In this document: piece by piece, positions 4,731 to 61,076 of the stretch
Numbering within the stretch: position 1 is the first letter of the stretch
Layout of the letters: each line of letters opens with the position of its first letter
DNA from: Escherichia phage rV5_ev147
Sequence record: LR597647
Direction: 5' to 3' (one strand)
Length of the DNA: 64,000 nucleotides
Made by a program: the position numbers and the translations under genes
The notes under the pieces: model-generated
The model's input: only the letters and a program-made list of their open reading frames with translations
Told to the model about the DNA's origin: nothing
Databases searched by the model: none

Positions 4731-5549
4731 TTGAGCAAGAAAGAGTCCAACGACAAATACTACACAAACCCTGAGTATGCAGAATATCTTGTTGGTAAAG
4801 TAAAAGATAAGTATGGGAATTGTGCATACGTTGAGCCTTCTGCTGGAAGGGGTTCTTTTTCAAAACTATTTTCAGAGATACTGTCGTACGATTTAGTACC
4901 AGATCCTGAATTTGAAGGACCAACACCGTGCATTCAGGCAAACTTCTTGGAGGTGCATCCCAAGGCAGATGTCTTCATAGGTAACCCACCATTTGGCAAG
5001 AATTCATCCTTAGCTTGCAAATTCTTTAACCATTGTGCATCATTGCTAGAGCTTGGAGGGGCTATAGCCTTCATCTTGCCACGGACATTTGAAAAAATAT
5101 TTTTTGCAAACAAACTGGACATGTCGATGCACCTTGTCTACAGCGAAAGGTGCCCTAAGAATTCGTTTTTACTTAATGGCAAACCTTATGACGTGCCATG
5201 TGTTTTCCAAATTTGGGAGAAAAAGGCGTGCAATAGGGATCCTGTAGAGATTGGAGAGAATAAGTTATTTTCTTTTAGCACACCAGATGACTACGACTTC
5301 TGTGTAAGACGTGTTGGGTATAATGCTGGAAAAGTATTGGGGGATGATGACCCAAAATCTGAAGAATCAACATATTTCATAAAATCTTTAGTTAACGGTG
5401 TTGACAGAGTGTTTGCTGAATGCTATTCTTCTTTTCAAGAAGAAGCAGGTAAGACTGCTGGAATGAAGAGTATAGGTAAGAAAGAACTACAATACATTTT
5501 GGAGACCAGGTATGATCAAAAGCATAGACTTGACCAAAGAACTTACTGA
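4731..5549 (+). CDS. DNA N6-adenine methyltransferase (TTG start)
   Basis: AdoMet motif VEPSAGRGSF and catalytic IGNPPFG; GGAGG RBS 5 nt before TTG 4731. Confidence 0.7.
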   Translation: MSKKESNDKYYTNPEYAEYLVGKVKDKYGNCAYVEPSAGRGSFSKLFSEILSYDLVPDPEFEGPTPCIQANFLEVHPKADVFIGNPPFGKNSSLACKFFNHCASLLELGGAIAFILPRTFEKIFFANKLDMSMHLVYSERCPKNSFLLNGKPYDVPCVFQIWEKKACNRDPVEIGENKLFSFSTPDDYDFCVRRVGYNAGKVLGDDDPKSEESTYFIKSLVNGVDRVFAECYSSFQEEAGKTAGMKSIGKKELQYILETRYDQKHRLDQRTY

Positions 5550-5970
5550 TGCAAAAGCTTTTGGTGAGACAGCGGTACAAAGAGGACAGGCGATGGGACT
5601 GGCACTACCTTTCGTCTTAAAAGAGCACTTTACAGATTTTCAACTTATCAAAGGTGATAAGGGAATGCTTATCCTGGAGCATAAGTTGAGTAAGAAACGC
5701 TATAAAGTCGTTTTTAATTCTAAAGCTCCAACAAAACTGGGATTCAGAACTTACAATCTTAACCCATCCTACACTAAGGGTGTTGGAAGGGTAGAACAAC
5801 AGCATTTCAGTGCCAGAGCTTCTTTAGCCCCTTTGATGCTAAATTTCTCAGGGGTGGCTTTAGGATACCTTGATAAGAAAAGGGTTCTTCATGTTCGTTT
5901 CACAGACTTTGTAACGCTTTTAGCTAACAACGAGGTTGATGAGAAGGGACGTGTAAAAACAAACTTCTAA
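5512..5970 (+). CDS. hypothetical protein
   Basis: ORF collinear. Confidence 0.4.
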   Translation: MIKSIDLTKELTDAKAFGETAVQRGQAMGLALPFVLKEHFTDFQLIKGDKGMLILEHKLSKKRYKVVFNSKAPTKLGFRTYNLNPSYTKGVGRVEQQHFSARASLAPLMLNFSGVALGYLDKKRVLHVRFTDFVTLLANNEVDEKGRVKTNF

Positions 5971-5985
5971 TAACGCATAGTATGA

Positions 5986-6189
5986 TTGGAGACCGAAATG
6001 ACACTAGAGTTAACAATTCCAGACAGCTTTTCAGAAAACTTTATCCCAGAAATGATGAGTAAGATGCGATCATTGCTTGATCAGATTGAGGAGGTTGTTT
6101 GGGAAGACGATGCTGTAGTGGCTAACGAGCTGGTAGATAAGTGTAAAAGTATTATTGATGCAGTTGAAGAATACCACGGAGGTTTTTAA
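5986..6189 (+). CDS. hypothetical acidic protein
   Basis: ORF with RBS. Confidence 0.4.
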   Translation: METEMTLELTIPDSFSENFIPEMMSKMRSLLDQIEEVVWEDDAVVANELVDKCKSIIDAVEEYHGGF

Positions 6190-6803
6190 TGGATATTATT
6201 GTTCTTAACGCCCCACCCAGCAGTGGTAAGGATCACATTGCAGATCTCTTGTTGGAAGCTATTCCTAACTCACACCACCGTGAGGTTAAGGAAATGCTCT
6301 TCAGTGTGGCAATTAAGGCAGCTGGTGTAACTCCTCAACTCTGGAATGCACTTTATGACCGCCACTACAAAGAAGAGCCTTGCCCTTTCTTAATGATAGA
6401 CGGCAAGCATGTTTCTCCGCGAGAATGGATGATCCATTGTAGTGAAAATCTGATTAAACCTATCTTTGGTGAAGATGCTTTCGGTAAAGCCGCAGTCGCA
6501 TCTTTGAAGAAAGATTTCCCTGAAGGTAAAGGGGTTATTGTTTACTCCGATGGGGGATTCAAAGAGGAGCTGGCATGCCTTAGCGAGTACGCATACAGCA
6601 CAGGTGGAGATCTGTTGTTGTTCCGTATTCACCGTGTAGGATATGACTGGGGAAATGATTCCAGAACCTATCTAAGTCTGGAAAAGAACGGAATAAAAGG
6701 GGTTGAGTTTGATGTTGTAAACCCTGAAGGTGCACCTTGGGAGTGTGCATCGGAGATTGTGTGCAAGTATATTGATGCTAAAGAGGCCCAAGAAGAATGT
6801 TAA
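6189..6803 (+). CDS. deoxynucleoside monophosphate kinase-like P-loop protein
   Basis: N-terminal IIVLNAPPSSGKDHIADLL resembles phage dNMP kinase P-loop. Confidence 0.55.
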   Translation: MDIIVLNAPPSSGKDHIADLLLEAIPNSHHREVKEMLFSVAIKAAGVTPQLWNALYDRHYKEEPCPFLMIDGKHVSPREWMIHCSENLIKPIFGEDAFGKAAVASLKKDFPEGKGVIVYSDGGFKEELACLSEYAYSTGGDLLLFRIHRVGYDWGNDSRTYLSLEKNGIKGVEFDVVNPEGAPWECASEIVCKYIDAKEAQEEC

Positions 6804-7390
6804 TCGGAATTGATGTAGATCTGACACTGGTAGATTCAGGAACAGCATGGTGGGAGTGGTTGGAGCGTTTGTATGGTCCAGCCAGTAAGACAGTAGCTAA
6901 ACCTTCTAATGGGCTAATGTATTACGATCTGTCAAAGTATTGGCCTGATCGTCCCAAAGAAAACATCATAGGACCTTTTGATTTCTGGAGTGATCCGTTC
7001 CTCTACGACTTCCTTAAGCCTGAAGAGGGGGCTATTGAGGTTATGAAAGATTTGGTGGCTCGTGGTCACAAGCTTGCATTTATCTCGGTATGCAAGAAAG
7101 GTCACCTTGCATCTAAATCAAGGTTCTTAAAGCGTTGGACCAGTGATTTTATGGATCTGGACGATCACACCCAGGGCCACGGCTTCTACGCCACACATTT
7201 CAAAGGGAATGTGGCTGTAGATGTTATAATTGACGACAGGCATGAATACCTGAACCAATTCGCTTCACGACCTGAAGTTATTAAAATCCTAAAAGATACG
7301 CCTTATGAGCAATTCGAGGAGTTAAAGGTCAGTGTTGACTATACCGCTAATAGCTGGTATAAAATAGGAAAATTTTTAGAAGGTATTTGA
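6797..7390 (+). CDS. HAD-family 5'(3')-deoxyribonucleotidase
   Basis: N-terminal IGIDVDLTLVDS (DxD HAD motif I) and later VIIDD. Confidence 0.55.
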   Translation: MLIGIDVDLTLVDSGTAWWEWLERLYGPASKTVAKPSNGLMYYDLSKYWPDRPKENIIGPFDFWSDPFLYDFLKPEEGAIEVMKDLVARGHKLAFISVCKKGHLASKSRFLKRWTSDFMDLDDHTQGHGFYATHFKGNVAVDVIIDDRHEYLNQFASRPEVIKILKDTPYEQFEELKVSVDYTANSWYKIGKFLEGI

Positions 7391-7391
7391 A

Positions 7392-7592
7392 ATGGGCAGA
7401 TGTTCTAAAGGTGGCGATCCTGTAGTCAGATACGGTGACTGGCTAGAGGTGTATGATCTAGGAGGTAAGCTAGTGTATGCCTCTAGGATCACCCAAGATA
7501 TGTGCTCTGACATGTTCAACAGATACCTTGCATTTAAGGCCAACATAAACCCAGACGAAATTTCCAAAATTAAAACAAGGAGAGCTAAATAA
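7392..7592 (+). CDS. hypothetical protein
   Basis: ORF. Confidence 0.4.
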   Translation: MGRCSKGGDPVVRYGDWLEVYDLGGKLVYASRITQDMCSDMFNRYLAFKANINPDEISKIKTRRAK

Positions 7593-8575
7593 TGCTAAAA
7601 CTGTGCACTGCAAAGATTATTGCTGACAGCATTTCCGAGAAAGGTAAGCGTATCACCACTTTTGAACTAGAGTATCCTCGAATTATTCACTCAGAGCTTA
7701 TGACGCACCGAGTGTTCAGCCGAAACGCCATGTCTTCCCGTGCAGTACCTGTCGGCAAGATGCTGCAACAGATTGTGGAGAATCCGGCAATGCCAGTTCG
7801 CTTCGGTGTAAATAAGCGAGGAATGGAAGATGGTGGGGAACACGATCAAAAGATCCGTGTAGAGTACACTGACATGGAGCTAACTCCTGAAGAGTTTTGG
7901 AAAGAAGCTGCAAAAAACGCCGCTTGGCATGCAGAGAAGTTCGCCCTTGCTGGTTACCATAAGCAAGTATGTAACCGCTTAGTGGAGCCGTTCCAGCGCA
8001 TGAAAACAGTTGTAACAAGCACCGAGTGGAATAATTTTTTCCACCTCCGTTGCTGGCACGATGCGGATCCTACGATTCAGATGTTAGCTAATTGTATGTG
8101 GGAGGCTCTTGAGAATAGCACTCCTGAAATCCTTAAACCGGGTCAATGGCACACCCCATATGTAGAGCACGTTTATTTGGACGGAGAGTTTAACTACGCT
8201 GTACGTGACACAGAAGGAAAGCTCTGCATTCTCGATACTAAAGAAGCTCTGTCTATCAGTGCTAGTTGCTGTGCACAAGTATCTTATCGAAATATTGACA
8301 GCACGTTTGAAAAGGCAGATAGTGTGGCTAAAAAATTGATTGGTGGGGATCGTATTCATGCAAGCCCTTACGAGCACCAGGCAACACCTATGGATCACGA
8401 TAACGCAATGGAACGTTTAAACTACTACCTGTCTTCATGTGAAATCACACAAGACATCAGTACTTGGCAGGAAGGTGTAACCCATCAAGACCGTGATGGT
8501 AAATTCTGGTCTGCCAACTTTTGTGGGTGGGTTCAGCACAGACAACTGCTTAATAACCACTTCGTGAAAGGTTAA
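7592..8575 (+). CDS. thyX: flavin-dependent thymidylate synthase ThyX-like
   Basis: THR-x7-SSR resembles ThyX signature RHR-x7-SxR; sits in nucleotide metabolism module. Confidence 0.5.
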   Translation: MLKLCTAKIIADSISEKGKRITTFELEYPRIIHSELMTHRVFSRNAMSSRAVPVGKMLQQIVENPAMPVRFGVNKRGMEDGGEHDQKIRVEYTDMELTPEEFWKEAAKNAAWHAEKFALAGYHKQVCNRLVEPFQRMKTVVTSTEWNNFFHLRCWHDADPTIQMLANCMWEALENSTPEILKPGQWHTPYVEHVYLDGEFNYAVRDTEGKLCILDTKEALSISASCCAQVSYRNIDSTFEKADSVAKKLIGGDRIHASPYEHQATPMDHDNAMERLNYYLSSCEITQDISTWQEGVTHQDRDGKFWSANFCGWVQHRQLLNNHFVKG

Positions 8576-8604
8576 TCCTATCACAGCGATAGGTAACTTT
8601 TGTG

Positions 8605-8633
8605 TTGACTAATAGTATTAGATAATCTATAAT
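8605..8633 (+). promoter_or_regulatory. sigma70-like promoter (TTGACT-17-TATAAT)
   Basis: consensus hexamers, 17 bp spacer. Confidence 0.55.
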
Positions 8634-8634
8634 A

Positions 8635-9135
8635 ATGGCTCACTTTGTTGGTGAGCCAGAAATGGAGACAGATATGAGTAATGTTATGATTCCTAAAAAG
8701 ACATTTATTTCAGTTACTTTAGATTTTCTATCTACCGTCCCCGGGTTTAACGTTCGCACACGAAACGGTCTCCGAGCTGCACTCTTTGCCGTAGGGTTTG
8801 ATTTAAAAAGTATTGATGTTCTTCGTGGAAAAAACGTTCGATGCAAAAATAAGCCAACACATTATCGAAAGGCAGATGTATTTGCTGGTGTCATGCGTGC
8901 AGACTTTAGATACCCACAAATGTATAACGGTGTAGATATTTTAGATGTAGATAAAGCACCTGGTGAGGCAATGCTTGTTCAAGATCTCCCGTATGATATC
9001 CCTGTAGAGGATCGTGTTAATGTAAGAAAGTATACAAAACAATCTGAAAAGGCTGAAGATATTCATATTGTTGATGAACCTTTCAATTTTGAAGATCTGC
9101 ATCGCCTGGAAAAATTATTCGGTATTGAAAGCTAA
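8635..9135 (+). CDS. hypothetical protein (start uncertain)
   Basis: ORF; first ATG lies inside promoter footprint so true start probably downstream. Confidence 0.4.
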   Translation: MAHFVGEPEMETDMSNVMIPKKTFISVTLDFLSTVPGFNVRTRNGLRAALFAVGFDLKSIDVLRGKNVRCKNKPTHYRKADVFAGVMRADFRYPQMYNGVDILDVDKAPGEAMLVQDLPYDIPVEDRVNVRKYTKQSEKAEDIHIVDEPFNFEDLHRLEKLFGIES

Positions 9136-9145
9136 GGTGGTGAAG

Positions 9146-9376
9146 ATGAGTCATAACTCCAAGTGGAAGGATCTTGGTTTTGCAAGTCGGGCAGAGTATG
9201 TTGGTTGGCTTTGGTTCAATGGCCTGACAAACGATATTAAAATGTATGATGATGTCTATTATGACGAGTATACAGGTAAAATTATAAATATCTCTGTAGA
9301 AGAGGATACTTTTATCCAGCAAGATACTGATACCTGCCTTGATAAATACGTTAGTGAAGTGGAGGAAGCAAATTGA
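9146..9376 (+). CDS. hypothetical protein
   Basis: RBS aaggtggtgaag before ATG 9146. Confidence 0.4.
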   Translation: MSHNSKWKDLGFASRAEYVGWLWFNGLTNDIKMYDDVYYDEYTGKIINISVEEDTFIQQDTDTCLDKYVSEVEEAN

Positions 9377-11688
9377 TCACCAAGGTAATTAAAAGCAACG
9401 GATGTGAAGTGGCATTCGATCCAGAACGTTTAAATAAGGCAGCTATTTTCGGTGACGATGGTAACGGCAATTGGTCACATATTGCACTGGATGCCTACAA
9501 GCGGTTGTATGATGGATGTACAACCAAAGAAGTTAACCAAGCTATTATAGACTCTTGTGTTAGCCGTAAAGACGAAGCACATTCCCGTATGGCTGGTCGT
9601 GTTCTTATTGGTCAGATCTATAAAGAGGCTTTTGGAGGGTTTACAAAGATCCCTTCCTTACCATCATTTTACAATGACATGGTTGAGAAAGGTTATTGGG
9701 AGGATATGGGTTATAGCTTTACCGAGCTAAACACTTTAGACGCTGTTATTGACCACAGTAAAGATCTCGGTTATGGCTATGCAGTCCTTAAACAGTTTCG
9801 CGACAAATACGGGATCAAGGATACTCTTAAAGACACCTTGTTTGAATCTCCCCAGATGATGTTTATGGGGATAGCAATGGCTGTCATGAAGAATATGCCG
9901 AAAGAACGTCGTATCAACGATGTTGTAAAATTATACACTTATCTGTCCGACTTAAAGATCAATGCCCCAACACCGTACTTAAACGGGCTGCGCACAGGTA
10001 AGACAGGGTATGCATCTTGTTGTGTAATAAAAGCTGACGATACAGCAAAATCTATTGGTGTGGCACGTGAAGTTGCGTACACAATGACGGTTAACCAAGC
10101 AGGTATCGGCTACTACTTATCCTCAAGATCTGCAGGCGATGGTGTTCGTGGTAACACTATTAAACATATGGGTAAGATTCCATATTATCGAGGTATTGAT
10201 GCTGGGGTTAAGGAGAACAGACAACAATCACGTGGTGGTTCTGCAACAGTATCATTCCTTGCACTGGACCCGCAGATTGATGAGCTAATCCGTTTGAGAA
10301 ACCCTATGACTGTTGCTTCAAAAAGAATCAACACCATGGACTACTCCATCGGTATTAATAGGTCGTTTATCAACCGTGTGGCTAAGAATTTAGATTGGAT
10401 GCTTGTTTCTTATAAGCACGCGCCTCAACTGCATGAGGGTATCTTCACCATGTCTATGGAGGAGTTTGATGCAGAGGTTGATCGTATTGCTAAAGATGAC
10501 AGTATTCCTAAAACATGGATCCGAGCTAGAGATCTTGCTGTTGAACTGATCACGCAGCGCACTGAGGTGGGAAGGCTGTACGTATACTGGACAGATGAGA
10601 TGAATAGACATACACCTTTTAAAGATGTGATCTATTCAAGTAACCTGTGTGCAGAAATAGCCCTCCCGACAAAAGGCTATTCAGATATGCGTAATATCTT
10701 CAAGTACGATGCTGATGATGGAGAGGTTGCATTGTGCTTCCTGTCATCTCTTGTAGCTGGAAGGGTTACTCCAGAGGAGTATGAGGATGTTGCATACTAC
10801 ACGGTGCTTATGATTGACAATGTTATGGAAATCATGACATATCCGTATGAAAATATGGAAAGCACAGTTAAAAAACGCAGATCCATCGGGGTTGGCCTTA
10901 CCAATGTTGCACATTTTATTGCCAGCCACAAGGTTACTTACGGGTCTCCTGAAAGTAAACAGCTCGTTCACGATCTTGCAGAACTTCACAGCTACAGCTT
11001 GCATAAGGCAAGTTTACGGTTGGCAAAAGAGCGTGGTGTCTGCGAGTGGATGCATAAAACAAAATATCCAGAAGGTTGGTTACCAATCGACACCTATAAC
11101 AAAGAGGTCGATAGCGTGGTGAAAGATCCTTCTCTTAAACAGGATTGGGAAGGGTTACGTAAAGAAATCATTGAGAATGGTGGGCTACGTAATAGCGTTC
11201 TTGAAGCATATATGCCTAATGAAAGCTCTTCGCTGGCAACAAACACCACTAACGGGGTTTATCCTGTCCGTGAGCACATTATCTTTAAAAAGTCGCCACA
11301 AGGGCAGGTGCTGTTTATCGTTCCTGACTATGATGAGTTGAAAGAGTATTACACCTCGGCTTGGGACGTTGATACTAACGACATGATCGATATGTATGCC
11401 GTGATTCAAAAATTCACAGGTCAGGCAATCAGCGCGGATTTATACATAGACTACACCAAGTTGAAAGATGGTAAAATTTCAATGAAGGAGCAGTTAGGGT
11501 ACCTTATCCGTGCCACTAAATTCGGGATGAAGACATGGTATTATTTAAACTCTAGGGTTGGTGCTGGTGACTCCTTGGCAGAGGAACTTCATGCCAAGAA
11601 ACAGGCTGAAGATGAAACCAGAAAGAACTATCCTTTGATTGCAGATAGTTCAGTTGAAGATCCGTATTGCGAAAGCTGTGCACTATAA
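9373..11688 (+). CDS. nrdA: ribonucleotide reductase class Ia large subunit NrdA (TTG start)
   Basis: N-terminal ATP-cone, catalytic SNLCAEI motif, C-terminal CESC pair; GGAGG RBS. Confidence 0.9.
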   Translation: MITKVIKSNGCEVAFDPERLNKAAIFGDDGNGNWSHIALDAYKRLYDGCTTKEVNQAIIDSCVSRKDEAHSRMAGRVLIGQIYKEAFGGFTKIPSLPSFYNDMVEKGYWEDMGYSFTELNTLDAVIDHSKDLGYGYAVLKQFRDKYGIKDTLKDTLFESPQMMFMGIAMAVMKNMPKERRINDVVKLYTYLSDLKINAPTPYLNGLRTGKTGYASCCVIKADDTAKSIGVAREVAYTMTVNQAGIGYYLSSRSAGDGVRGNTIKHMGKIPYYRGIDAGVKENRQQSRGGSATVSFLALDPQIDELIRLRNPMTVASKRINTMDYSIGINRSFINRVAKNLDWMLVSYKHAPQLHEGIFTMSMEEFDAEVDRIAKDDSIPKTWIRARDLAVELITQRTEVGRLYVYWTDEMNRHTPFKDVIYSSNLCAEIALPTKGYSDMRNIFKYDADDGEVALCFLSSLVAGRVTPEEYEDVAYYTVLMIDNVMEIMTYPYENMESTVKKRRSIGVGLTNVAHFIASHKVTYGSPESKQLVHDLAELHSYSLHKASLRLAKERGVCEWMHKTKYPEGWLPIDTYNKEVDSVVKDPSLKQDWEGLRKEIIENGGLRNSVLEAYMPNESSSLATNTTNGVYPVREHIIFKKSPQGQVLFIVPDYDELKEYYTSAWDVDTNDMIDMYAVIQKFTGQAISADLYIDYTKLKDGKISMKEQLGYLIRATKFGMKTWYYLNSRVGAGDSLAEELHAKKQAEDETRKNYPLIADSSVEDPYCESCAL

Positions 11689-11695
11689 TTTTAAA

Positions 11696-11716
11696 GGGGC
11701 TTCGGCCCCATTTTAG
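11696..11716 (+). terminator. hairpin with T-run between nrdA and nrdB (attenuator/partial terminator)
   Basis: GGGGC-ttcg-GCCCC followed by ATTTTAG. Confidence 0.45.
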
Positions 11717-11726
11717 AGGTAGAATA

Positions 11727-12815: not shown

Positions 12816-12818
12816 TAT

Positions 12819-13097
12819 ATGAGCTGCGAAAAATCTTTTTTCATCATCATTTACGGTAAGGATAACTGCCCACATTGTGTCAGAGCAAAAGAATTTGCAA
12901 TCAGCAAAGGTCTGCCTTTTGTATATAAGACACTTGGCGAGGGCTACACAAAAGAAGAGCTTATTGAGAAGTGCAGTCCAATTGTCCCCAGAACGTTGCC
13001 GCAGATCTTCTTAGAAAGCGATCTTGACAGTGTCCATATAGGCGGTGCCGACGATTTCATCTCTTTTGTTAAGAATGGTTTTGGAGAGAAAAAGTGA
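12819..13097 (+). CDS. glutaredoxin/NrdH-like redoxin
   Basis: CPHC active site in first 20 residues, 92 aa. Confidence 0.7.
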   Translation: MSCEKSFFIIIYGKDNCPHCVRAKEFAISKGLPFVYKTLGEGYTKEELIEKCSPIVPRTLPQIFLESDLDSVHIGGADDFISFVKNGFGEKK

Positions 13098-15217: not shown

Positions 15218-15220
15218 TTC

Positions 15221-18791: not shown

Positions 18792-19325
18792 ATGACTTGT
18801 GCTAGAAAACCTGATGAACAACGTAACGCCTACGATGAGTATGTGACACCGGAGTGGTGTGCAGAAGGGCTGTATGACCTTATTCCGTTCCCAGAAGACT
18901 GGACCTACTTAGAGCCTTGCAGGAATAGTGCCTCAGGTGTGTTCTACTCCCGTATGCCGTTAGGATCTGCATGGGGAGAAATACAAGAAGGTGTTGACTA
19001 TCTGAATACAGAATACAACCATGTTGACTGTATTATCACCAACCCACCATACAGCCTGGCTCGTGAGTTTGTAGACAAGGCGTTGAAAGATGCTGACGTA
19101 GTTATTATGCTTTTGCGTCTTAATTTTCTGGAAAGCAAAGCCAGATTTGAATGGTGGCTTGATAATGCACCTACTACTGTGATCACAATATCTAAGCGTC
19201 CATCATTTCAATCAAACGGCAGAACTGACGGGCAAGCATATGCATATTTTGTGTGGGATAAGAAAAACCGTTTAGACTTGCCGCCGTTTATGTGGTTGGC
19301 ACCCCCAGAGGTAGACCTGAAATGA
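18792..19325 (+). CDS. phage Dam-type DNA N6-adenine methyltransferase
   Basis: CIITNPPYS catalytic motif, about 170 aa. Confidence 0.75.
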   Translation: MTCARKPDEQRNAYDEYVTPEWCAEGLYDLIPFPEDWTYLEPCRNSASGVFYSRMPLGSAWGEIQEGVDYLNTEYNHVDCIITNPPYSLAREFVDKALKDADVVIMLLRLNFLESKARFEWWLDNAPTTVITISKRPSFQSNGRTDGQAYAYFVWDKKNRLDLPPFMWLAPPEVDLK

Positions 19326-20548: not shown

Positions 20549-21078
20549 CAGGTATGCTTCTGATTAACTGGGAAGACCTCTATGGGGACAAAGACCCTGT
20601 TGCGTTTGTTGATCGTAGGTGGAGATACACTGAAGAACAACTGGCGGCAAAAAATTTAACTGCAAAACGCAGAAAGATCATCCAGTGCAAGTACAAATAC
20701 GCACAGTTTGCTGCAAAAGTGTCTCCACAAATCGAGAACTTTGTGCTTAAATTGTATGACGAGTACCTCAAATTCAAATTGGATTTTGTGCAGGTGTACC
20801 GTGCACAGGTACGACCAGATACCAACATATGTAGATGGAAGGTTGTTTGTGAAGGTAAAGATTTGCCGCTCAGCTTGACAATTGAGTGGCGTTATGGGTA
20901 TCATGAGTGTGGTCTGTATGATATTTGGGATGTCATTGTAGATCCTGCTAAGCATCTGAACACAGAGGAGCTGGAATATATCAATAAGGTTATTCTCGAT
21001 ATGTTTTTCAGCTACACACATGAAAACTCTGAGAAAGAACGGGATAATTTTCTTGACACCCTCAGCGACCATTTGTAG
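20545..21078 (+). CDS. hypothetical protein
   Basis: ORF. Confidence 0.45.
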   Translation: MTGMLLINWEDLYGDKDPVAFVDRRWRYTEEQLAAKNLTAKRRKIIQCKYKYAQFAAKVSPQIENFVLKLYDEYLKFKLDFVQVYRAQVRPDTNICRWKVVCEGKDLPLSLTIEWRYGYHECGLYDIWDVIVDPAKHLNTEELEYINKVILDMFFSYTHENSEKERDNFLDTLSDHL

Positions 21079-30736: not shown

Positions 30737-30952
30737 ATGAAGATAGAGATATTTGGTGGAGCTGACAACACTCGTGGCCTGATTTACCTTGAATTCGATG
30801 AATCATACCTGCCAGAGGTGTTAAATATAGACTCTGTTGCTGAGGCTTTGGGAGTAAACCCTAAAGAACTCCACTCTTGTGCTGAGATCGATGGTTGGGA
30901 AGAGACCATGAACATTGATTTCAGTGAAGTAGAGGATGAACCGCTGGACTGA
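30737..30952 (+). CDS. small acidic protein (family 1-like)
   Basis: RBS agaggag; MKIEIFGG, acidic C-terminus. Confidence 0.45.
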   Translation: MKIEIFGGADNTRGLIYLEFDESYLPEVLNIDSVAEALGVNPKELHSCAEIDGWEETMNIDFSEVEDEPLD

Positions 30953-32423
30953 CACACAATTAGCTGCCCGGCTAAAGTGCTGGAAGCACCTATAACACAT
31001 CTTTCAACTAAATTTCCTACCACCACAATCACTTACCTCCCACACATGACTGTTTGCTTGTTTAGTGAGCAGTCATGCCTTGACATTCTTGCCTATCCTG
31101 ATAAAATTAAGTTCTTCTCTTTTCTTTTACCGAGTAATTCGGGTTTTCTGTTCTCTTCGGTTTGAAGGGGTATAGAGATACACCTGAGTGAACAGGGTGA
31201 ACAACCGAACCATTAGCTATGGCATTAGCATGGCGAAGCGGACGGGTGACGAAAGAGGGGCCGGAGGACACCAGTCACTGCCATATGATATATGGGTGAT
31301 AACCTGAAGAGTCTGAATAAGTGTTTAAGTACCAGTCAGAGGAAAAGGTGAATGGTAGCCGAAGGGGGGGAGGGGGGTTTCTTGTATCTTTAATTTGTAT
31401 ATTATGTATACACTTGTAAACCAATCTAATCTGAATCTGTTTACCACACAAAGCGGATAGAGACAAATATTGCCTATTAAACTTGAATTATTTATAGAAA
31501 ATACCACAACACCCCTTAAGTCTTTGATTTTACACACAAATCCTACAGATATTCAACCTCCATATTTAACATACTTGTAACATATTCCATACTCTACCTG
31601 TCTGATCAATTTCCCCAACTACATTCTCATATTTTCCCTGTCTGTACTACCCCTGCCCCGCCGGGAGTCCCGTCATATCTGGCTTTCCAGCAAATATCAC
31701 ACCCACAAATATCATTGCCTGAAGAGGGTTTCATCCCATAATACCTGCCTTACCTGAAGAGCGCTTCATACACCACGTAAATTTTTTAATTGACCTCCCC
31801 CTGCCCCGCCGGAGAGGTTGGCTTTTCCCACACAGACCTGAAGAGTCAGCCAGAAATATCTGAATAGGCCCAATTCTACCACGATTTTGACCTGACCTAC
31901 AGGGAGGCCCGAAGGGTCTAGCTTTCAGCTAGAGTCCTTGCAGGACCTACAGGAGCGCTGCCAGGCGGACGGAATGGGAATACTTCTCATTCTTATAACA
32001 ATTCTCAAATATCGAGGCAGTGAGAGAAATTAATAGGCCAGGCCGTTCACACAGTGGCACAACATTTGCAACCTATTTTGTGTGGATGAATGAGAATACC
32101 TATCATTGTGAGAACTGTTATCATTACGGGCAATTTAACATAATACCCATTATGCGCACCACTGGCGATACATACAAGGATTGATAACATGAGTTACAGT
32201 TTACGCATATAACAATCATATTTCTTACTATTTGTGTGGGATATAGTTAGCAGCCAATAGATTAGATATTGACCTGCGGACTTCCAACCGTCTAGACGTC
32301 TAAACGCCCACACAACAAGGATTATACATACATTACTGAATGTAAACAGGACCGCAAAAATGCTACCATACCAGTTTGTAAATTTTTCATGCAGCACTTG
32401 ACAAAGAGGAGGAAAACTTGTCT

Positions 32424-32475
32424 GACATAATGGTGACATAACTGACACGATTGACATAATTGACATGCCTGACTG
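32424..32475. repeat. iteron array: 5-6 direct copies of TGACA(T/C) at 9-11 bp spacing
   Basis: copies at 32424, 32435, 32444, 32452, 32461, 32470. Confidence 0.5.
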
Positions 32476-32520
32476 TTCACGCTCTCATTATTCCCGCCCT
32501 TACTATTCACGCCCTTTACT

Positions 32521-32610
32521 GCTTACATTCTTGATAGTCTACATGCTTAATGGTTTACATGACTAATAGTTTACATAGCTAACTGTTTACGCATAAACTG
32601 TTTACACAGA
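32521..32610. repeat. iteron array: about 6 copies of (G)TTTAC(A/G) at 15-16 bp spacing
   Basis: copies near 32523, 32540, 32555, 32570, 32586, 32601. Confidence 0.5.
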
Positions 32611-32618
32611 TATGATAA

Positions 32619-32910
32619 GCCATGCCATTCGTTTGCATGATAACAATAACGATCAACAACAATAAAGACTGAAATGATAACGTTGTTGATTTGACTGACT
32701 AACAATTAACAGGCTAATAATCTATGACATAATATAAAAGCAGGGCAACTATTAGCAGATCTATAGTTGCCTTGCTTGTTATGTCATGATTAACTAAATA
32801 CAAGGCAACTATGATCTGATTAATAGTTTGCAGACAAACTATCACGGGGGTGATGGTTACTGCTTTTATATTATGTCGCGACTCCGTCGCGCCATGCCAT
32901 TCGTTTGCAT
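32619..32910. repeat. 252-bp palindrome-rich segment flanked by perfect 20-bp direct repeats GCCATGCCATTCGTTTGCAT
   Basis: DR at 32619-32638 and 32891-32910; nested inverted repeats inside. Confidence 0.5.
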
Positions 32911-33571
32911 AGTTGCCTTATTGTTACAGATAAAATAATTGTATTGTTAATTATTTCTTATCTTTCTATTAGTCATCTAATGATTCCAGTTAGTATAGTA
33001 ACGTACAGTAAACATTAGACGACTAAAGATTTCTCTGATTATGATAACTTGCCGTGACAATTTCAGACTGTTTACGAAAAATGTTGACACCTGAGCTGAT
33101 TTATGTTATGCAATTTAAACGAATAATTATTTTATGCAGGTATTGACTATTCTGTTATTCTATGGTCGGAATAAATACTTAGCAGGCTATAGAATGGTGA
33201 GCGTACGTAAATTCTGAGATCTGTCGGCTATAGTTATACTCGATTTTTCACGTAGAACACGCTTTTTGGTTTGTGTAAGTGTATGACTTATAAAGATTTT
33301 TAGTTGTTGACAAGATATTGAAGATGTGCATCAGGTTAAATTTTGTGCAATAGCTGCATTACGTGCAATTTTGGAAGGAAAACGGGTAAAAATAGCACCG
33401 CTACCACACAATGAAAGGTTATGCAATAGTTATTTTACATGTATATTTGTACAGTGTGTGGGATTGATGGCTCGTCAATTATTCCACTTGCCAGGTAGGG
33501 CCGTTTATGGTAGGGAGGAAGAGCAGACAAAAAGAAAGGGACCTAAGCCCCTTGATAATTCAGTTAAAAAA

Positions 33572-40913: not shown

Positions 40914-41201
40914 TTATAACTTCCTGATCTGTGTGATCGTATCCCAAAAGTCTACGATTTTTGCGCCTCCAGCCTTTAGGCGGTATAGTGTTTCTTGCAT
41001 CTTGTAAGCCGGGATCGGTCGCGGTGTTACCTGGTCGCCCTTCTCATTCTTGTACTTGATAATATAGTCTTCATTGTCGTTGAATACCCAAAACGGGTAT
41101 TCTGTAAGGGCGTTGCTATCTTTTTCGTTTTTAGATTGGATCTTGTTTACAATTAAAGCCGTAGCAATAGCGCCAATAATAAAACTTGCCCCGCTGATCA
41201 T
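40914..41201 (-). CDS. small protein with N-terminal TM segment
   Basis: RBS aaaggagaaag before ATG at 41201. Confidence 0.45.
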   Translation of the reverse strand: MISGASFIIGAIATALIVNKIQSKNEKDSNALTEYPFWVFNDNEDYIIKYKNEKGDQVTPRPIPAYKMQETLYRLKAGGAKIVDFWDTITQIRKL

Positions 41202-52234: not shown

Positions 52235-52458
52235 AGGTCCTCTTCAACAACTACAAACTTGGCAAGCAAAGTGGTTCCGTAGATATGATACTCGCCGTTT
52301 GCCAGATGGGAGATAAACCAGGCAACCCCTTCCTCGTCTTTAATCATTTTATTTGCACGAGCTTTATCGTAATAAACCTCGTAGGTCTTTCCTTCTTTAA
52401 AGAATGACAGGTCTGTCATCTTTTCTTCTACAAAAGTAGCTTTAACCAAAGTTGTCAT
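52231..52458 (-). CDS. small protein, paralog family 4
   Basis: IKDEEGVAWFISHLANG. Confidence 0.45.
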   Translation of the reverse strand: MTTLVKATFVEEKMTDLSFFKEGKTYEVYYDKARANKMIKDEEGVAWFISHLANGEYHIYGTTLLAKFVVVEEDL

Positions 52459-55599: not shown

Positions 55600-55657
55600 A
55601 TACAGTTCTCCTTAAAGGGGAGGCGGTTGTACTACCCCTCCCACTCTTTGTTAAACA

Positions 55658-57736
55658 TTAAAAAGGTGTTTCATCATCCTCAAAACCAGGAACATGGTCA
55701 GAGGACGGATCATCGTACTGGAGTTCTTCCTGCGTGTCAACAGGCTTAACAGTAGGAGTTACAACCTTATCAGCCACAACCTTGCCCATAGGTGTTTCTA
55801 CAACTGCATGCTCCTGATCCTCAAACATAGCCTGAGGTCTCCAAACAACCTCCCCACCTTCTCCATCTGTAAACATTTGCATTTCTTTGTCCCAGTACCA
55901 ATTACTGGCATCATGGAACTTACCTGTGTGCGGGTCCATAACCAAAGTGTCAGCAATACCTAGAGTTTTTGCTGGACGGTTTTTAAGACCTACCAGACGG
56001 ACACGTCCACGAGAACGATCCACCATTTCTTCGGCCTCGACACCTATGACTACCCAACTCAACTGTTCAAGCCCCGCCGATCCTCGCAAATTCTCTTTTC
56101 GCACAGGATACCAGAAAGGTAACGGGTTACCATCCTTGTCCTTAGGAGGCACAATCTCTGTACGTTTGAGGTGAGCGATCACCAAGATAAACACGTTAAA
56201 CTGCTTACAAAACGCAGCCAGCTGAGTCATAGCCATGTCCAGTTCTTTTCGCTCATCCTTAACATTAAGCCCTGAAATTACCATGGACAGGTGATCCAGC
56301 ACAATATAACGGCAATGGTACAGGCAAACCATTTGCTTAAGCTTGGTAATCAACTCATCCACCGGAATAGACCCGAAATGTTTGAACACCTTGATTTTTC
56401 CAGCTTTTGCCCATGATTGGTGAATCTCTGCGTGTTCTTGATCAGTTAAAAACTGGCTAGGATCTTCAACAAACTCTTTAACATCAAACCCTAACTGGTT
56501 TGCATACAAGGAGTTAATTGCTTCCTCTGGGTCCTCCTCAAGATGGATCATACATAGACGATCATCCTCTTCATAGTCATCAGCCTTCGGGCATGTCGGG
56601 TCCATTAGGTATCTTGCAATACAGTGTTCCAGTTTTTTAGCTACGGTTGTTTTACCGCCACCTGATGGACCTGTAAGCATTACGAGTGTCCCTTTGTGCA
56701 AGCCTTTTAGCATTTTTTGCAGTTTTGGGAACTCTGCGCTGATATCTACCCCGTTGGAAGTCTTTTTCCGCAAAGACTCGATAGAGAAGTCTTCTAAATC
56801 CGACACCGCATCAGGCACATATTTAACAGGATGCCGGAACATGTTGACAATATCTTCCAGCTTTTTAGCCTTCAGCATGTCTCGGATATCTTTTACACCG
56901 TCAGGGTCGTTTACTTCACCAGGGTATTCTACGTGGTAAACGTTATCAGCCATCAAAAATGCTGCGATATTGTGCGTGGCCTCAACACCTTTAATGACGT
57001 GTTTTTGCTTCTCTACCTCGTTAGCTGCATCGTTATCCATTGCCAGCACAACTGTTCCATAGCTACGGATAAACTTCTCATTGTTTGCAAAAGTATCTAC
57101 TGCGTTTGCACATCCACAGTTAATTCCAACAAAAGGCAGGCAGGGTTTTCCTGCCAGATCACCACCGTTGATAACTGCATCGATCCCGTCCTGGACCTCT
57201 TTAGCCCACTGCTTCACCTTTGCCGGGGCTTTAGCGTTGGTGAGAATCCCTTTTACTTGTATCTGATATGCAGCCTGCCATGCTGCAATAACATCACCTT
57301 CCCCCTCACAAACGTTAATTTGCTTACGGTTGTTGGAAGATGCACACAGCTTTTGCCCAAACATCTGAGAGTTAGCCTTTACTATGCCAACAACTGAGAA
57401 ATGGCCCCTTTGCTCTTTAGGAATCGTCCAGTCACGCTTTTTGAAACCGGACAGATTTCCGTAGCGGTCGTAATATGGGAAATATGTTGCAGTGACTGTC
57501 ACACCGTCTTCTTGTGACAATGCTGATCGCACACCAAAATATTGTGCAGCCATCAGACCGATATTTTGTTGTGGGACAGGGACAATTTTAGTATTTTCTA
57601 AAACAGTCTCTACAGTTTCAACTTCTTTTTCATCACGATAGTCTCGTTTCACACTTCCCCCACTTTTATACTTAGTTGCTTTCGGGTTTGGCTCACCGAA
57701 ACGGTTGTATGCAGATGCCATAAATTTACTTCCCAT
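55658..57736 (-). CDS. DNA primase-helicase (TOPRIM plus DnaB-like ATPase, T7 gp4-type)
   Basis: TOPRIM VVLAMDNDAANE; Walker A GPSGGGKTT; helicase motif VIAHLKR. Confidence 0.75.
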   Translation of the reverse strand: MGSKFMASAYNRFGEPNPKATKYKSGGSVKRDYRDEKEVETVETVLENTKIVPVPQQNIGLMAAQYFGVRSALSQEDGVTVTATYFPYYDRYGNLSGFKKRDWTIPKEQRGHFSVVGIVKANSQMFGQKLCASSNNRKQINVCEGEGDVIAAWQAAYQIQVKGILTNAKAPAKVKQWAKEVQDGIDAVINGGDLAGKPCLPFVGINCGCANAVDTFANNEKFIRSYGTVVLAMDNDAANEVEKQKHVIKGVEATHNIAAFLMADNVYHVEYPGEVNDPDGVKDIRDMLKAKKLEDIVNMFRHPVKYVPDAVSDLEDFSIESLRKKTSNGVDISAEFPKLQKMLKGLHKGTLVMLTGPSGGGKTTVAKKLEHCIARYLMDPTCPKADDYEEDDRLCMIHLEEDPEEAINSLYANQLGFDVKEFVEDPSQFLTDQEHAEIHQSWAKAGKIKVFKHFGSIPVDELITKLKQMVCLYHCRYIVLDHLSMVISGLNVKDERKELDMAMTQLAAFCKQFNVFILVIAHLKRTEIVPPKDKDGNPLPFWYPVRKENLRGSAGLEQLSWVVIGVEAEEMVDRSRGRVRLVGLKNRPAKTLGIADTLVMDPHTGKFHDASNWYWDKEMQMFTDGEGGEVVWRPQAMFEDQEHAVVETPMGKVVADKVVTPTVKPVDTQEELQYDDPSSDHVPGFEDDETPF

Positions 57737-58520
57737 TAATTCTGCTCCTTACTACAGGCTCGTTTGCCAGGAATACGGCTTTTGCCCAGCCACGTGGTGT
57801 GAGGCTTCGAATCATCTTCGTTCTTGCACTCTTTCCACCCAGCTTGGCGTGTTGCATGGAATACCCGCTAACCACGTCAACTATTTGCGGGACAGGTTTT
57901 GTGGCTGGGATTATAAATCCATTACCTATCCAGCCGCAAGTTATTTTTGGATAGGCATCACGTGGAGCTATAAATTCAGGAAACCATGGGTTTACATCAT
58001 CTTCCGGTAAATACCCGCCATAATCCGAAGGGTGAAAACGGTAATCAGGTTTGCGCCACAGTGTGGACATAACACCCACAGGATTCTCTACATGCCACGG
58101 GCAATCGTAAATCTCTCCCAGCTCTTCCGCAACCCGAGCATCCTTTACAGCATTAATTTGGATCATGGGGTCCTTAGCCAGCTTTTTCTTAAAATGTGCA
58201 GCACCTGATACCGCTAAATGCGTGCACGGAGGAAATGCAAGAATAAAATCTGGAGCCGGATACATGCAAAAAGTTTCCTGAGGGAACCACGGGTCAATCC
58301 AATAGTCCACATAGTGAATGTTGGGATGATCGGTGATCACCTCTGCATAACTGCCGTGATCAGCGCCTTCTGCATTAAAGCACAGGCACAGGTACCCAGC
58401 TTTTGCCCAGTCAATGACTGCACCACCAGACCCGTCAAATAGACTCCACACAACACCTTTGTGGTAGTGTTCTTTGTAGATAAATTTCAATTTGCTGTCT
58501 CCTAATGCAAAAAGCCCCAC
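57726..58520 (-). CDS. DNA cytosine-5 methyltransferase (compact)
   Basis: motif I LFDGSGG, motif IV FPPCTHLAVSG (PC dyad), motif VI HVENPVG. Confidence 0.65.
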   Translation of the reverse strand: MGLFALGDSKLKFIYKEHYHKGVVWSLFDGSGGAVIDWAKAGYLCLCFNAEGADHGSYAEVITDHPNIHYVDYWIDPWFPQETFCMYPAPDFILAFPPCTHLAVSGAAHFKKKLAKDPMIQINAVKDARVAEELGEIYDCPWHVENPVGVMSTLWRKPDYRFHPSDYGGYLPEDDVNPWFPEFIAPRDAYPKITCGWIGNGFIIPATKPVPQIVDVVSGYSMQHAKLGGKSARTKMIRSLTPRGWAKAVFLANEPVVRSRINGK

Positions 58521-58541
58521 CCTTTCGGGCAGGGCCTAGTG

Positions 58542-59024
58542 TTAAACCCGGATACCTATTGTATACTCGGTGGATACCAATGTCAAATCTAAATTTAAAA
58601 TTTCTTGCATCTCATAATATGCGTCCAGGGTTAGATACATTTCCCCATCCTTTTCTGCATACTTGTCCAAGTGCTTAAGGCATTTCGGATAACTATCGAG
58701 TGCAGCTTTCAGACACTCAAATTCTGTGCTGTTAATGAATCCTTCCATCTTAGCTACCCGTTCTGGAGTAACGATAGCACTGTAGTGAGATTTAGCTTCC
58801 TGAATGCAATGGGTCCAAGCATCAACTTTCTCTTCGAAAAGCCCGAAGAACTTCTTTTTGGTGAGCTTCAGATTCTTTAAGTGCTTAAGCACTCGGTTGC
58901 CGATCACAGCCACATCACGAAACTTAAGGATCACTTTGTCGATATCCTCGCGGCCTATTTTCACAAAGCAAGCCTCGCACATTTCAGGAGTGGCATAGCC
59001 TACTTTCCACATAAAATCTGACAT
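58542..59024 (-). CDS. hypothetical protein
   Basis: ORF. Confidence 0.45.
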   Translation of the reverse strand: MSDFMWKVGYATPEMCEACFVKIGREDIDKVILKFRDVAVIGNRVLKHLKNLKLTKKKFFGLFEEKVDAWTHCIQEAKSHYSAIVTPERVAKMEGFINSTEFECLKAALDSYPKCLKHLDKYAEKDGEMYLTLDAYYEMQEILNLDLTLVSTEYTIGIRV

Positions 59025-59036
59025 AACACCCTCTCC

Positions 59037-59432
59037 TTATTCCTGAAAAGCAACGATATCATATGAACTTGCAGATGATCCTGGTGAAGAATGACTCCAG
59101 TCTAGGTCATCAGAGTAGTCAGCGTACTGTGCACCACTACGTAGTTTGTATTTTACCCACTTACCTGGTGCAGGGTTTTCACCACCTTCCCATACTTCCC
59201 AGCCTTCTGGCAGGCCGTCCTGGGGGTAGTCATCCACCTCACTAATAATCTTAGGGTTTGGCACCAAGATCCCTGCAGGCTCTTCCTTCCTGATAAGTGT
59301 CCACACAGTGTAGGTGTCTGAGCAGGCGCATGATAGCAAAGTATATCCACTATTCAGAACTTCTGCAAGCTCTTTCTCAGCATCTTCCAACTTGGTTAAG
59401 TGGTATTGGACAATCTTCACATCTGTAATCAT
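59037..59432 (-). CDS. hypothetical protein
   Basis: ORF. Confidence 0.45.
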   Translation of the reverse strand: MITDVKIVQYHLTKLEDAEKELAEVLNSGYTLLSCACSDTYTVWTLIRKEEPAGILVPNPKIISEVDDYPQDGLPEGWEVWEGGENPAPGKWVKYKLRSGAQYADYSDDLDWSHSSPGSSASSYDIVAFQE

Positions 59433-59737
59433 CAGAAACCTCCCACTTCTTCGGCAAATGCAGCTGCTGTCGTCGCTGCATCAAGATAGGACTCTAGTTC
59501 ACGGGCTGCACGTTTGTAAATTGAGTGGCGCATATCGTTTGGCAGTTTGTGGAAGTCCACCTCTTCACCGTTGTGGTAAACATGCACATCAGTGATCTGT
59601 CTAAATCCATAATAGTCAACATCAGAATCACGACACTCTGGGTCTGGCAACTGGACAACTGCCTGAGCTTCCACAGTGAACATATCGTCAAGTTCAAAAT
59701 CGATTTCAAAAGTGTATGGTTTATAACGTTTCATCAT
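59432..59737 (-). CDS. hypothetical acidic protein
   Basis: ORF; start shifted to internal ATG to avoid overlap. Confidence 0.4.
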   Translation of the reverse strand: MMKRYKPYTFEIDFELDDMFTVEAQAVVQLPDPECRDSDVDYYGFRQITDVHVYHNGEEVDFHKLPNDMRHSIYKRAARELESYLDAATTAAAFAEEVGGF

Positions 59738-59750
59738 TTGATTGTACTCT

Positions 59751-61076
59751 TTATTGATCAGACTTATCTTTCGCAACTAAGGCCGGGGCAAGTTTGTAAT
59801 AACGGAAGCCACCACCACCTTGCCAGTTTACAGACTTAGAAATACCCCCTTGATCTTCGCCATCGATCACTTTTTCCAAGCGCGGAATAATATGGGTATG
59901 ACAATGATCACCTAGCTCGATTGAGATCCAGCGTCTTTTCATCTTATGAGCTACAGCAGCAGTAGTTCCCGAACCACCGAATGAATCCAATACCAAATCG
60001 CCTTCTCGCGTGCACATTTCGAAAATCCGCTTCAAAAGCGCTTCTGGTTTTTTCCCATTTTTGAAACTAACGCCGCCTTCATTTGCTATTCCATTCCAAC
60101 TAATGTCTGTCCAAACATCAGTTATTAGTTCCGCAGGTTGCATCTCACCGTCAATTTCCAAAAGCCTATTGGAGTAAAAGACCATTTGCCTACCATTTGC
60201 GATATAAAATCCTTCAACATCCTCATTTGGATGTACATAAACCTTATCCCTATCTTTCTTTGACTTCTCGATAGTTTCTTTTCTCTTTATTTTAGCACCA
60301 CCACCAATTGCAACAGATTGAAATACACGTTCTGCATTATCAATTGCGAATTGTGCTAATTCATCATCGAATGTATCAGGCAGTTTTTTCTTGGCTTCTT
60401 TTGCATCTTTATAGCCATTGGCCTTTGCAAACGCATCGGCAATACCGCACCACGTCCAATTTTTATAATGGTCATCCGGGTTTAATAGGTATTTGTTATA
60501 TCCTGTATCATACCCTTTAGGTATATAGATTTTGTTAAGCGGTTTCTGGGTGCGATCTTTTGCATATACAAGCAAAAAGTTTGCTGTGGAGAAAACTGTG
60601 GCTCCTGTTGCCTTAAATCCCGAAGGGGAATTTGTGGTCATCGATATAGTATTTAACTGATTTGCACGACCAAAAATCTCGTCCATCAAAACTTTTAAAT
60701 ACGCCATTTCGCAATCATCTAAGTGAACGAATATTACCCCATCATCACTTAGAAGATTACGAATTATTTCTAACCTATCCCTCATTAAGCCCAGCCAAAT
60801 GGAATGCTCCAGGCTATCATCGTAATGCTCAAAAGCCCTCCCGGTATTGAATGGTGGGTCTATGTAAACACACTTCACTTTGCCTGCATACTCTTGCTCT
60901 AGCGCCTTCAATGCTAATAAGTTATCTCCAAAAATCAGTTTATTATCAAAAATATCGTTTTCGGTCACTTTCTGGCTGTGGTAAGATTTGCTAGAATCTT
61001 CTAACAAAATGTGTGGCTCTAACTTTTTGCGCTCGTTTTTACCTATCCAGGTAAGTTCTAATTTGGTTTTGCTCAT
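59751..61076 (-). CDS. DNA methyltransferase, N6-adenine/N4-cytosine (beta class)
   Basis: catalytic VYIDPPFNTG then AdoMet motif DLVLDSFGGSGTTA (IV before I). Confidence 0.8.
   Translation of the reverse strand: MSKTKLELTWIGKNERKKLEPHILLEDSSKSYHSQKVTENDIFDNKLIFGDNLLALKALEQEYAGKVKCVYIDPPFNTGRAFEHYDDSLEHSIWLGLMRDRLEIIRNLLSDDGVIFVHLDDCEMAYLKVLMDEIFGRANQLNTISMTTNSPSGFKATGATVFSTANFLLVYAKDRTQKPLNKIYIPKGYDTGYNKYLLNPDDHYKNWTWCGIADAFAKANGYKDAKEAKKKLPDTFDDELAQFAIDNAERVFQSVAIGGGAKIKRKETIEKSKKDRDKVYVHPNEDVEGFYIANGRQMVFYSNRLLEIDGEMQPAELITDVWTDISWNGIANEGGVSFKNGKKPEALLKRIFEMCTREGDLVLDSFGGSGTTAAVAHKMKRRWISIELGDHCHTHIIPRLEKVIDGEDQGGISKSVNWQGGGGFRYYKLAPALVAKDKSDQ

Follow-up and report, generated by a model that had tools for sequence, protein, structure and literature searches.

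Four solitary methyltransferase genes of Escherichia phage rV5_ev147 and their probable role in site-specific protection against restriction

The DNA studied here is a stretch of 64,000 nucleotides (nt) from Escherichia phage rV5_ev147 (sequence record LR597647), called the window below. An earlier note, made from the letters of the sequence, had placed four DNA methyltransferase (MTase) genes in the window, and open reading frames (ORFs) were found at all four positions, each encoding a methyltransferase. The genes are called ORF1 to ORF4. We think it very probable that the four are orphan MTases which give the phage site-specific, rather than general, protection against restriction. The four genes are as follows.

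ORF1, 4731..5549, plus strand: 272 amino acids (aa), a predicted two-domain gamma-class (M.TaqI/M.BseCI-like) N6-adenine DNA MTase
ORF2, 18792..19325, plus strand: 177 aa, a minimal NPPY MTase, assigned through its orthologue to N6-methyladenine (m6A) formation at GATC (Dam-like function) and to retron triggering
ORF3, 57726..58490, minus strand: 254 aa, a predicted compact Dcm-like C5-cytosine MTase with a very small target-recognition region
ORF4, 59751..61076, minus strand: 441 aa, a predicted beta-class N6_N4 MTase of the type III Mod family

Over the 7-kb stretch with ORF3 and ORF4, the window has 100% identity to Escherichia phage rV5_ev156 (LR694165.1, Vequintavirus), and most of 123 phage records match that stretch at above 95%. 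When the window was compared with the last 64 kb of LR694165.1, a single 1-bp offset was found near window position 40,944; coordinates in LR694165.1 are those of the window minus 1 upstream of the offset and equal to those of the window downstream of it. All four ORFs coincide with annotated coding sequences of LR694165.1. At 90% identity or more, ORF4 was matched in 87 phage records and the other three genes in 116-120, and ORF4 appears to be the most dispensable of the four MTase genes. All four genes already carry annotations in over 100 Vequintavirus genomes, and the finding is known in substance. Two publications (PMC6563267 and PMC4690881) give only annotations, and a literature search for Vequintavirus methylomes beyond the retron study described below, and for phage methylome surveys, found nothing specific.

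The earlier note had described the enzymes as belonging to four distinct families. The count of four genes stands, but they fall into three classes, with ORF1 and ORF2 sharing one gamma-type NPPF/NPPY class. Both have the gamma-class motif order (D/F)xYxTP - ExxxGxG - NPP(Y/F), and a comparison of the two family profiles by hhalign gave a probability of 97.2% with an expect value (E) of 3e-11, indicating a homologous catalytic core. ORF1 would in effect be an ORF2-like core to which a recognition domain has been added.

ORF2 is identical at 176 of 177 residues to bas51_0176 of phage Bas51 (WalterGehring), a BASEL phage from this much-sampled group of E. coli myoviruses. The single difference, V174A, is near the C-terminus, and no functional difference is expected; further, the two genes have the same position, adjoining a ClpP-like protease gene. 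Previous work showed that a Bas51 gene annotated as an 'N6 adenine methyltransferase' triggers the retrons Asa1 and Squ1 and that its expression is toxic to E. coli (PMC12548924). The engineered changes D69G, D79G and T83P in the Bas51 MTase abolished retron defence, and phages carrying them plated level with the no-retron control (PMC12548924, PLoS Biol 2025). Three Bas51 genes carry an adenine-methyltransferase annotation, and among the four MTases only bas51_0176/ORF2 has Asp69, Asp79 and Thr83 all present. In the same study, nanopore 6mA calling of wild type Bas51 gave 1405 methylated adenines at GATC, 509 at GTAC and 576 at other sites, and the corresponding numbers for the T83P mutant were 35, 511 and 349 (PMC12548924, S4 table). 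By our site count the Bas51 genome contains 703 GATC sites, i.e., 1406 adenines, and 258 GTAC sites, i.e., 516 adenines. Thus 1405 of the 1406 GATC adenines and 509 of the 516 GTAC adenines are methylated, and methylation of both motifs is essentially complete. Because only 35 GATC adenines stay methylated in the T83P mutant, versus 1405 in wild type, the GATC mark depends on the phage enzyme despite the presence of host Dam. ORF2, whose orthologue one residue apart was the subject of this experiment, can be taken to be a GATC-specific m6A DNA MTase. The claim that the phage modifies its DNA is likewise borne out for Bas51, where published nanopore data put the methylation of GATC and GTAC adenines at ~100%.

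ORF2 had been called Dam-type in the earlier note. The term is apt for its function, m6A at GATC, but not for membership in the curated Dam families: the Pfam scan gave no match of ORF2 to PF02086, and ORF2 scored below the cutoff both for Pfam Dam PF05869 (19.2 bits, cutoff 28.1) and for TIGR01712 (16.1 bits, cutoff 97). The match to phrog_799, 'DNA methyltransferase', is strong (E 8e-67). Members of the ORF2 family are 160-227 aa long; TNPP(Y/F) is invariant among them, DxYxTP is found in the N-terminal part, and most have an EPCxGxG loop. The versions in ORF2 itself are DEYVTP, a degenerate LEPCRNSASG, and TNPPY. The family profile matches an HsdM-type enzyme, M.TaqI and M.BseCI at ~1e-4, and ORF2 represents a minimal family of its own that lies closer to the HsdM/TaqI cores of the gamma class. 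Complete and specific GATC methylation by a protein of 177 aa, with no recognisable target-recognition domain, would imply a recognition mode unlike those of solved DNA MTase structures. A second gene of note lies 1.2 kb downstream of ORF2, a 174-aa ORF at 20554-21078 (plus strand) in phrog_13467 (unknown function). By size and position it appears to correspond to bas51_0171, a 'putative glycosidase', and a premature stop in the Bas51 'putative glycosidase' gene relieves Asa1 defence (PMC12548924).

For ORF1, the start at 4731 was upheld, being a TTG behind GGAGG. A 282-aa version of ORF1 from the TTG at 4701 was rejected as spurious, that codon being inside a hairpin loop. Among the 806 database homologues of ORF1 the family motifs DxYYT-P, EPSAGxGxF and GNPPFG are invariant, and ORF1 itself has DKYYTNP, EPSAGRGSF and GNPPFG. 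No Pfam or NCBIfam model was matched by ORF1 at its cutoff; PF26055, a precomputed label on some of the homologues, had no match in a Pfam scan of those homologues; and the PHROG of ORF1, phrog_5172, is labelled 'unknown function'. ORF1 matches the PADLOC profile MTase_II PDLC03255 over its full length (E 3.3e-34). The AlphaFold model of ORF1, with a predicted local distance difference test (pLDDT) score of 92, could be aligned across both domains only with DNA MTases, the alignments spanning 241 residues with M.BseCI, 252 with MmeI, 238 with CamA and 228 with M.TaqI, versus ~150 residues with RNA enzymes. ORF1 has a separate C-terminal target-recognition domain, a feature of gamma-class type II enzymes.

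The bacterial contexts of ORF1 homologues were surveyed in the best 80 genome loci. In 18 of the 80 a conserved gene of ~215 aa lies immediately downstream on the same strand, and its product matches PADLOC REase_II PDLC03460 (E 2.5e-14, 1.5e-13 and 6.9e-9). Two individual metagenomic/genomic contexts were uninformative by themselves. The PADLOC MTase_II match, the two-domain alignment with DNA MTases and the restriction-enzyme neighbour in bacteria together argue for DNA as the substrate, and ORF1 is probably a type II modification enzyme that the phage carries without its nuclease. The ~215-aa neighbour was seen in Sphingomonadales, Rhodobacterales and Poseidonibacter (loci L021, L036, L038 and others, at ~3,770-4,450 on the plus strand of the locus); it is without a Pfam family, and its members share the motifs HGKxFE, PTSIK and LNPKIDSKxQRRLQCS. 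It appears to be a type II restriction-enzyme family that has been little described. A 152-aa ORF at 5512-5970, downstream of ORF1 in the window, was considered as a restriction-enzyme remnant and rejected: the similarity covers 37 residues with E 0.002 in a single comparison, and the profile of the 18 neighbours misses it.

Among the four, ORF4 alone has a firm match in Pfam (PF01555 N6_N4_Mtase, E 4e-42). It matches PADLOC MTase_III PDLC03636 with E 1.5e-205 over profile positions 2-444 of 575, its best solved relatives are the H. pylori Mod 6k0w (1.4e-28) and the EcoP15I Mod 4zcf (2.1e-24), and it is identical to bas51_0070. A DPPF motif points to N6-adenine over N4-cytosine chemistry, and the chemistry of ORF4 is probably N6-adenine. 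No Res gene was found next to ORF4, the neighbours being proteins of 113-160 aa with no Pfam or PADLOC match, and there is no Res annotation anywhere in the Bas51 genome; a 456-aa helicase near ORF4 is PIF1/RecD-like, not Res. One of the small neighbours, a 114-aa ORF at 59432-59776 (minus strand) directly downstream of ORF4, belongs to phrog_4240 (unknown function) and is weakly matched, with E 1.4e-5, by positions 55-133 of the 138 in the profile of phrog_1573, 'DNA methyltransferase'. Perhaps it is a small accessory domain that in some methyltransferases occurs as a fusion.

The start of ORF3 is most likely, from the local sequence, the TTG at 58490, which stands behind AGGAG at 58499-58503 and gives a protein of 254 aa. 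The alternative GTG at 58520 (264 aa) is unlikely, being part of the 3' arm of a terminator-like hairpin (58509-58536) that a T-run follows. At its stop end ORF3 overlaps the start of a primase/helicase gene by 11 nt. Motifs I (the S-adenosyl-methionine loop), IV (the catalytic Pro-Cys) and VI of C5 MTases are present in ORF3. In 42 members of the family FDGSG, PPC (Cys99 in the 264-aa numbering) and ENP are invariant or nearly so, and RSLTPRG near the C-terminus, a motif-IX-like element of C5 enzymes, is invariant. ORF3 matches phrog_757 with E 4.7e-87 and has no match in Pfam (PF00145 at E <= 0.1 included), NCBIfam or PADLOC; two homologues, P0054 and P0068, exceed the PF00145 cutoff of 22 bits (24.7 and 25.4 bits), over motifs I-IV only.

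Sequence searches for a solved relative of ORF3 were too weak, a single-sequence search giving only a chance match and the family profile giving only non-significant matches to DNMT3B and M.HaeIII (E 0.26-0.56), and structure prediction was therefore needed. The AlphaFold model of ORF3 has a pLDDT of 87.8. When the model was searched against the PDB with Foldseek, the top matches listed were all C5 MTases, namely the catalytic domains of DNMT3A/3B/3C (4e-7, template modelling (TM) score ~0.5) and the prophage enzyme 3g7u, and ORF3 is accordingly modelled as having a C5-MTase fold that is DNMT3-like. The earlier note considered ORF3 unusually short at 264 aa. That is so in comparison with bacterial C5 enzymes, but the size is the norm for the family, and ORF3 itself likely has 254 aa: family members typically have 226-250 aa, and the 120 top-ranked among 3,545 homologues in the database have 219-262 aa. 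The family was found in 1,503 phage records, among them Drexlerviridae, Dhillonvirus and phiKO2-like phages.

A member of known activity is close to ORF3. The Dcm-like enzyme of Bas06 (KarlJaspers) is 54% identical to ORF3 over the full length (E 3e-86), and C82, E128 and K175 of the Bas06 enzyme have aligned counterparts in ORF3, while the second Lys (K176) is Ile in ORF3. The genome of phage K42 shares 95.4% identity with that of Bas06 and has a 711-bp dcm gene that triggers retron Ec86; by liquid chromatography-mass spectrometry, K42 Dcm makes 5-methylcytosine (5mC) on the multicopy single-stranded DNA of Ec86, which has a CCWGG site of which mutations were tested (bioRxiv 10.1101/2023.08.16.553469). 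In the same study K42 Dcm was superposed on DNMT3A, and C82, E128, K175 and K176 were named as catalytic/binding residues. By analogy, ORF3 most likely makes 5mC at a CCWGG-like site. Toxicity on overexpression has been reported both for the ORF2 orthologue (PMC12548924) and for K42 Dcm (bioRxiv 10.1101/2023.08.16.553469). ORF1 (4731) and ORF3 (58490) have TTG starts directly after a terminator-like hairpin, and ORF2 and ORF4 have ATG starts; weak start codons may limit expression of MTases that are toxic when overproduced.

The absence of a cognate restriction endonuclease, claimed in the earlier note, was confirmed by three lines of evidence. The ORFs flanking the four MTase genes gave no Pfam or PADLOC nuclease match and no informative PHROG match. 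The full annotation of Bas51 lists exactly these four MTases, the proteins being identical to those of the window or 1-2 residues apart, and the only nucleases annotated are homing endonucleases, EndoVII and exonucleases. Finally, a profile of the restriction enzyme that neighbours bacterial ORF1 homologues found nothing among all window ORFs of at least 50 aa (best E 1.3). ORF1 and ORF4 have the look of modification enzymes taken over from restriction-modification systems of type II and type III, respectively.

To our knowledge, Dam, Dcm and EcoKI of E. coli K-12 do not target GTAC, and K-12 is without a GTAC MTase. Since GTAC methylation was unchanged in the T83P mutant (509 in wild type versus 511), it is independent of ORF2, and since GTAC is not a K-12 host target, a second phage adenine enzyme must be active. 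GTAC is methylated by ORF1 or ORF4. We lean towards ORF1, with some reservation, because of the precedent of M.HpyAXII and because of the habit of type III Mod enzymes, which usually mark asymmetric sites on one strand. M.HpyAXII is among the known GTAC m6A enzymes and is gamma-class and TaqI-like, with its catalytic Asn at position 87; the catalytic Asn of ORF1 is at position 85. No homologue of ORF1 or ORF4 with known specificity was retrieved, and H. pylori was absent from the best 80 genome loci. If one of the two makes the GTAC mark, the other could have a task of its own. A tentative proposal, on balance doubtful, is that the leftover enzyme marks the ~349 other m6A sites of the T83P mutant through a short asymmetric motif (for ORF4, a type III Mod-style mark on one strand), or acts on host DNA, RNA or defence-system nucleic acid, and that ORF2 has a new recognition mode.

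These observations suggest the following mechanism. Each orphan MTase would use S-adenosyl-methionine to methylate the replicating DNA of the phage at a short motif, ORF2 putting m6A on essentially every GATC, the second adenine enzyme, ORF1 or ORF4, putting m6A on essentially every GTAC, and ORF3 adding 5mC at a CCWGG-like site. The gene order in the replication block is helicase, ORF4, three small genes, ORF3, primase/helicase, polymerase, and the location of ORF3 and ORF4 there would suit methylation of nascent DNA. As only a few motifs are methylated, only enzymes cutting those motifs would be blocked, and the outcome would be a narrow, motif-specific immunity to methylation-blocked enzymes that cut GATC, GTAC and probably CCWGG. 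The cost would be that some retron defence systems sense these MTases.

The earlier note went further and read the four genes as heavy self-protective modification against host restriction. Taken broadly, such a reading would have the combined marks of all four enzymes shield the phage from host restriction at large. Full methylation of two 4-bp motifs, which amounts to 961 sites in the 140.7-kb Bas51 genome, and the presence of four MTases with no restriction enzyme encoded are in keeping with such a shield. The plating data for Vequintavirinae contradict it. In the BASEL study, where restriction systems of types I, II and III were discussed, the Vequintavirinae were described as 'exceptionally susceptible' to restriction-modification and as lacking 'any effective protection', and the low plating of wild type phage on the tested systems largely refutes a broad shield. 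Further, marks at GATC, GTAC and CCWGG cannot stop enzymes with other sites, such as the 21 EcoRI and 52 EcoRV sites of the Bas51 genome, which are not maskable by these methylations. Further, m6A at GATC would expose the DNA to methyl-dependent enzymes, DpnI being one. A broad shield is thus very improbable. A different possibility is that methylation is mainly non-defensive, serving replication, packaging, evasion of mismatch repair or gene regulation, with restriction protection as a side effect. Dam enzymes offer precedents in P1 packaging and in protection from MutH nicking. ORF3 and ORF4 lie within the replication module, with ORF3 overlapping the primase/helicase start, and ORF1-3 are kept at 90% identity or more in their ~116-120 phage records. 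The phage brings its own GATC enzyme, and in the mutant lacking its activity only 35 of 1406 GATC adenines are methylated, which shows that host Dam lags behind phage replication. In addition, GATC is not avoided in Bas51, its observed/expected ratio being 0.99. On the other side, the D69G, D79G and T83P phages plate like the no-retron control, so the gene is non-essential in the laboratory (PMC12548924), and GTAC, in spite of its near-complete methylation, ranks second among the under-represented 4-bp palindromes of Bas51, with an observed/expected ratio of 0.59 (0.68 in the window), the pattern expected from selection by GTAC-cutting enzymes. We regard a mainly non-defensive role as rather unlikely, though less so than a broad shield.

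It might also be that one or more of the four genes encode something other than a DNA MTase. The candidate is ORF1, which could be a METTL5/PH1948-like RNA m6A MTase acting on host or phage RNA, and ORF4 would then be the GTAC enzyme. The best solved-structure matches of the ORF1 profile were Ta1320 (3e-4) and the METTL5 rRNA m6A enzyme (0.017), ahead of M.TaqI (0.17); some homologues are labelled 'predicted RNA methylase' at source; and the three adenine-type enzymes are matched by only two reported m6A motifs in DNA. On the DNA side, the PADLOC type II DNA MTase match (3.3e-34) is full length, the C-terminal domain aligns with DNA MTases only, a type II restriction-enzyme homologue directly follows 18 of 80 bacterial homologues, and the gamma-class GTAC enzyme M.HpyAXII has its Asn at 87 versus 85 in ORF1. 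An RNA enzyme is accordingly quite improbable. Site-specific anti-restriction by four orphan DNA MTases remains the reading we prefer, and several points weigh against it. ORF1, ORF2 and ORF3 are under every curated Pfam/NCBIfam cutoff. The match of the retron-study gene to ORF2 was made from residue numbering. The GTAC mark has two candidate enzymes, ORF1 and ORF4. The Bas51 methylome names two m6A motifs, versus three adenine-type enzymes encoded; one of these enzymes may be redundant, may be silent or only weakly expressed, or may act on a different substrate. The 349 'other' m6A calls that survive in the T83P mutant could be noise or the product of the remaining adenine enzyme. The methylome was obtained by 6mA calling, and the activity and motif of ORF3 come from a 54%-identical relative, a distance at which specificity can shift.

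In sum, a phage with four MTases is nevertheless highly sensitive to restriction, and the number of MTase genes is a poor predictor of anti-restriction capacity. MTases can also be liabilities, as the ORF2 orthologue triggers Asa1 and Squ1 and the ORF3 family triggers Ec86. The outcome is a cleaner gene map for this phage group, in which two of the four genes have published functional data; as a discovery it is modest.

Two further observations concern the records and the window. Dozens of unannotated GenBank records numbered MG0656xx (MG065684.1, MG065674.1 and MG065647.1, for example) are titled 'Campylobacter phage' (host C. jejuni), yet they match these genes of E. coli Vequintavirus at 95-100% identity; mislabelling or contamination with E. 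coli phages seems a better account of them than true Campylobacter phages. Within the window, ~2.6 kb at 30,950-33,570 are nearly without genes; opposed transcription arms meet there and the GC skew switches sign. This segment contains repeated ACNGTTTACGCATA-like elements, and perfect direct and inverted repeats of 18-20 nt occur at ~32,619-32,926. Its counterpart in Bas51 is an unannotated 2.4-kb gap at 93,911-96,377. An Rfam scan of the window at the gathering threshold, the gene-poor segment included, found no RNA family. The segment could be a regulatory or origin region.

Each of the four enzymes can be set beside a known system. Like ORF2, the Dam enzymes of T2/T4 and P1 (PF02086) are solitary phage enzymes that methylate GATC adenines on phage DNA. 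The short phage 'Dam' of PF05869 is similarly short (a 169-position profile), but ORF2 scores below its cutoff. M.TaqI, M.BseCI and M.HpyAXII have 331-585 aa, whereas ORF1 has 272 aa and is without significant pairwise sequence similarity to them. ORF4 shares with the Mod subunits 4zcf and 6k0w the beta-class order, with DPPF early, FGGSGTT late and a variable region between; the Mod proteins have 618-644 aa, whereas ORF4, with 441 aa, aligns to their N-terminal and catalytic regions and is without profile positions 445-575. Type III systems pair Mod with Res, whereas ORF4 is solitary and phage-borne. Finally, the Dcm enzymes of Bas06 and K42 belong to the same compact family as ORF3 (236 versus 254 aa), both resembling the DNMT3A catalytic domain, but they come from 51-kb siphoviruses of the Drexlerviridae, whereas ORF3 is carried by a 137-kb myovirus.

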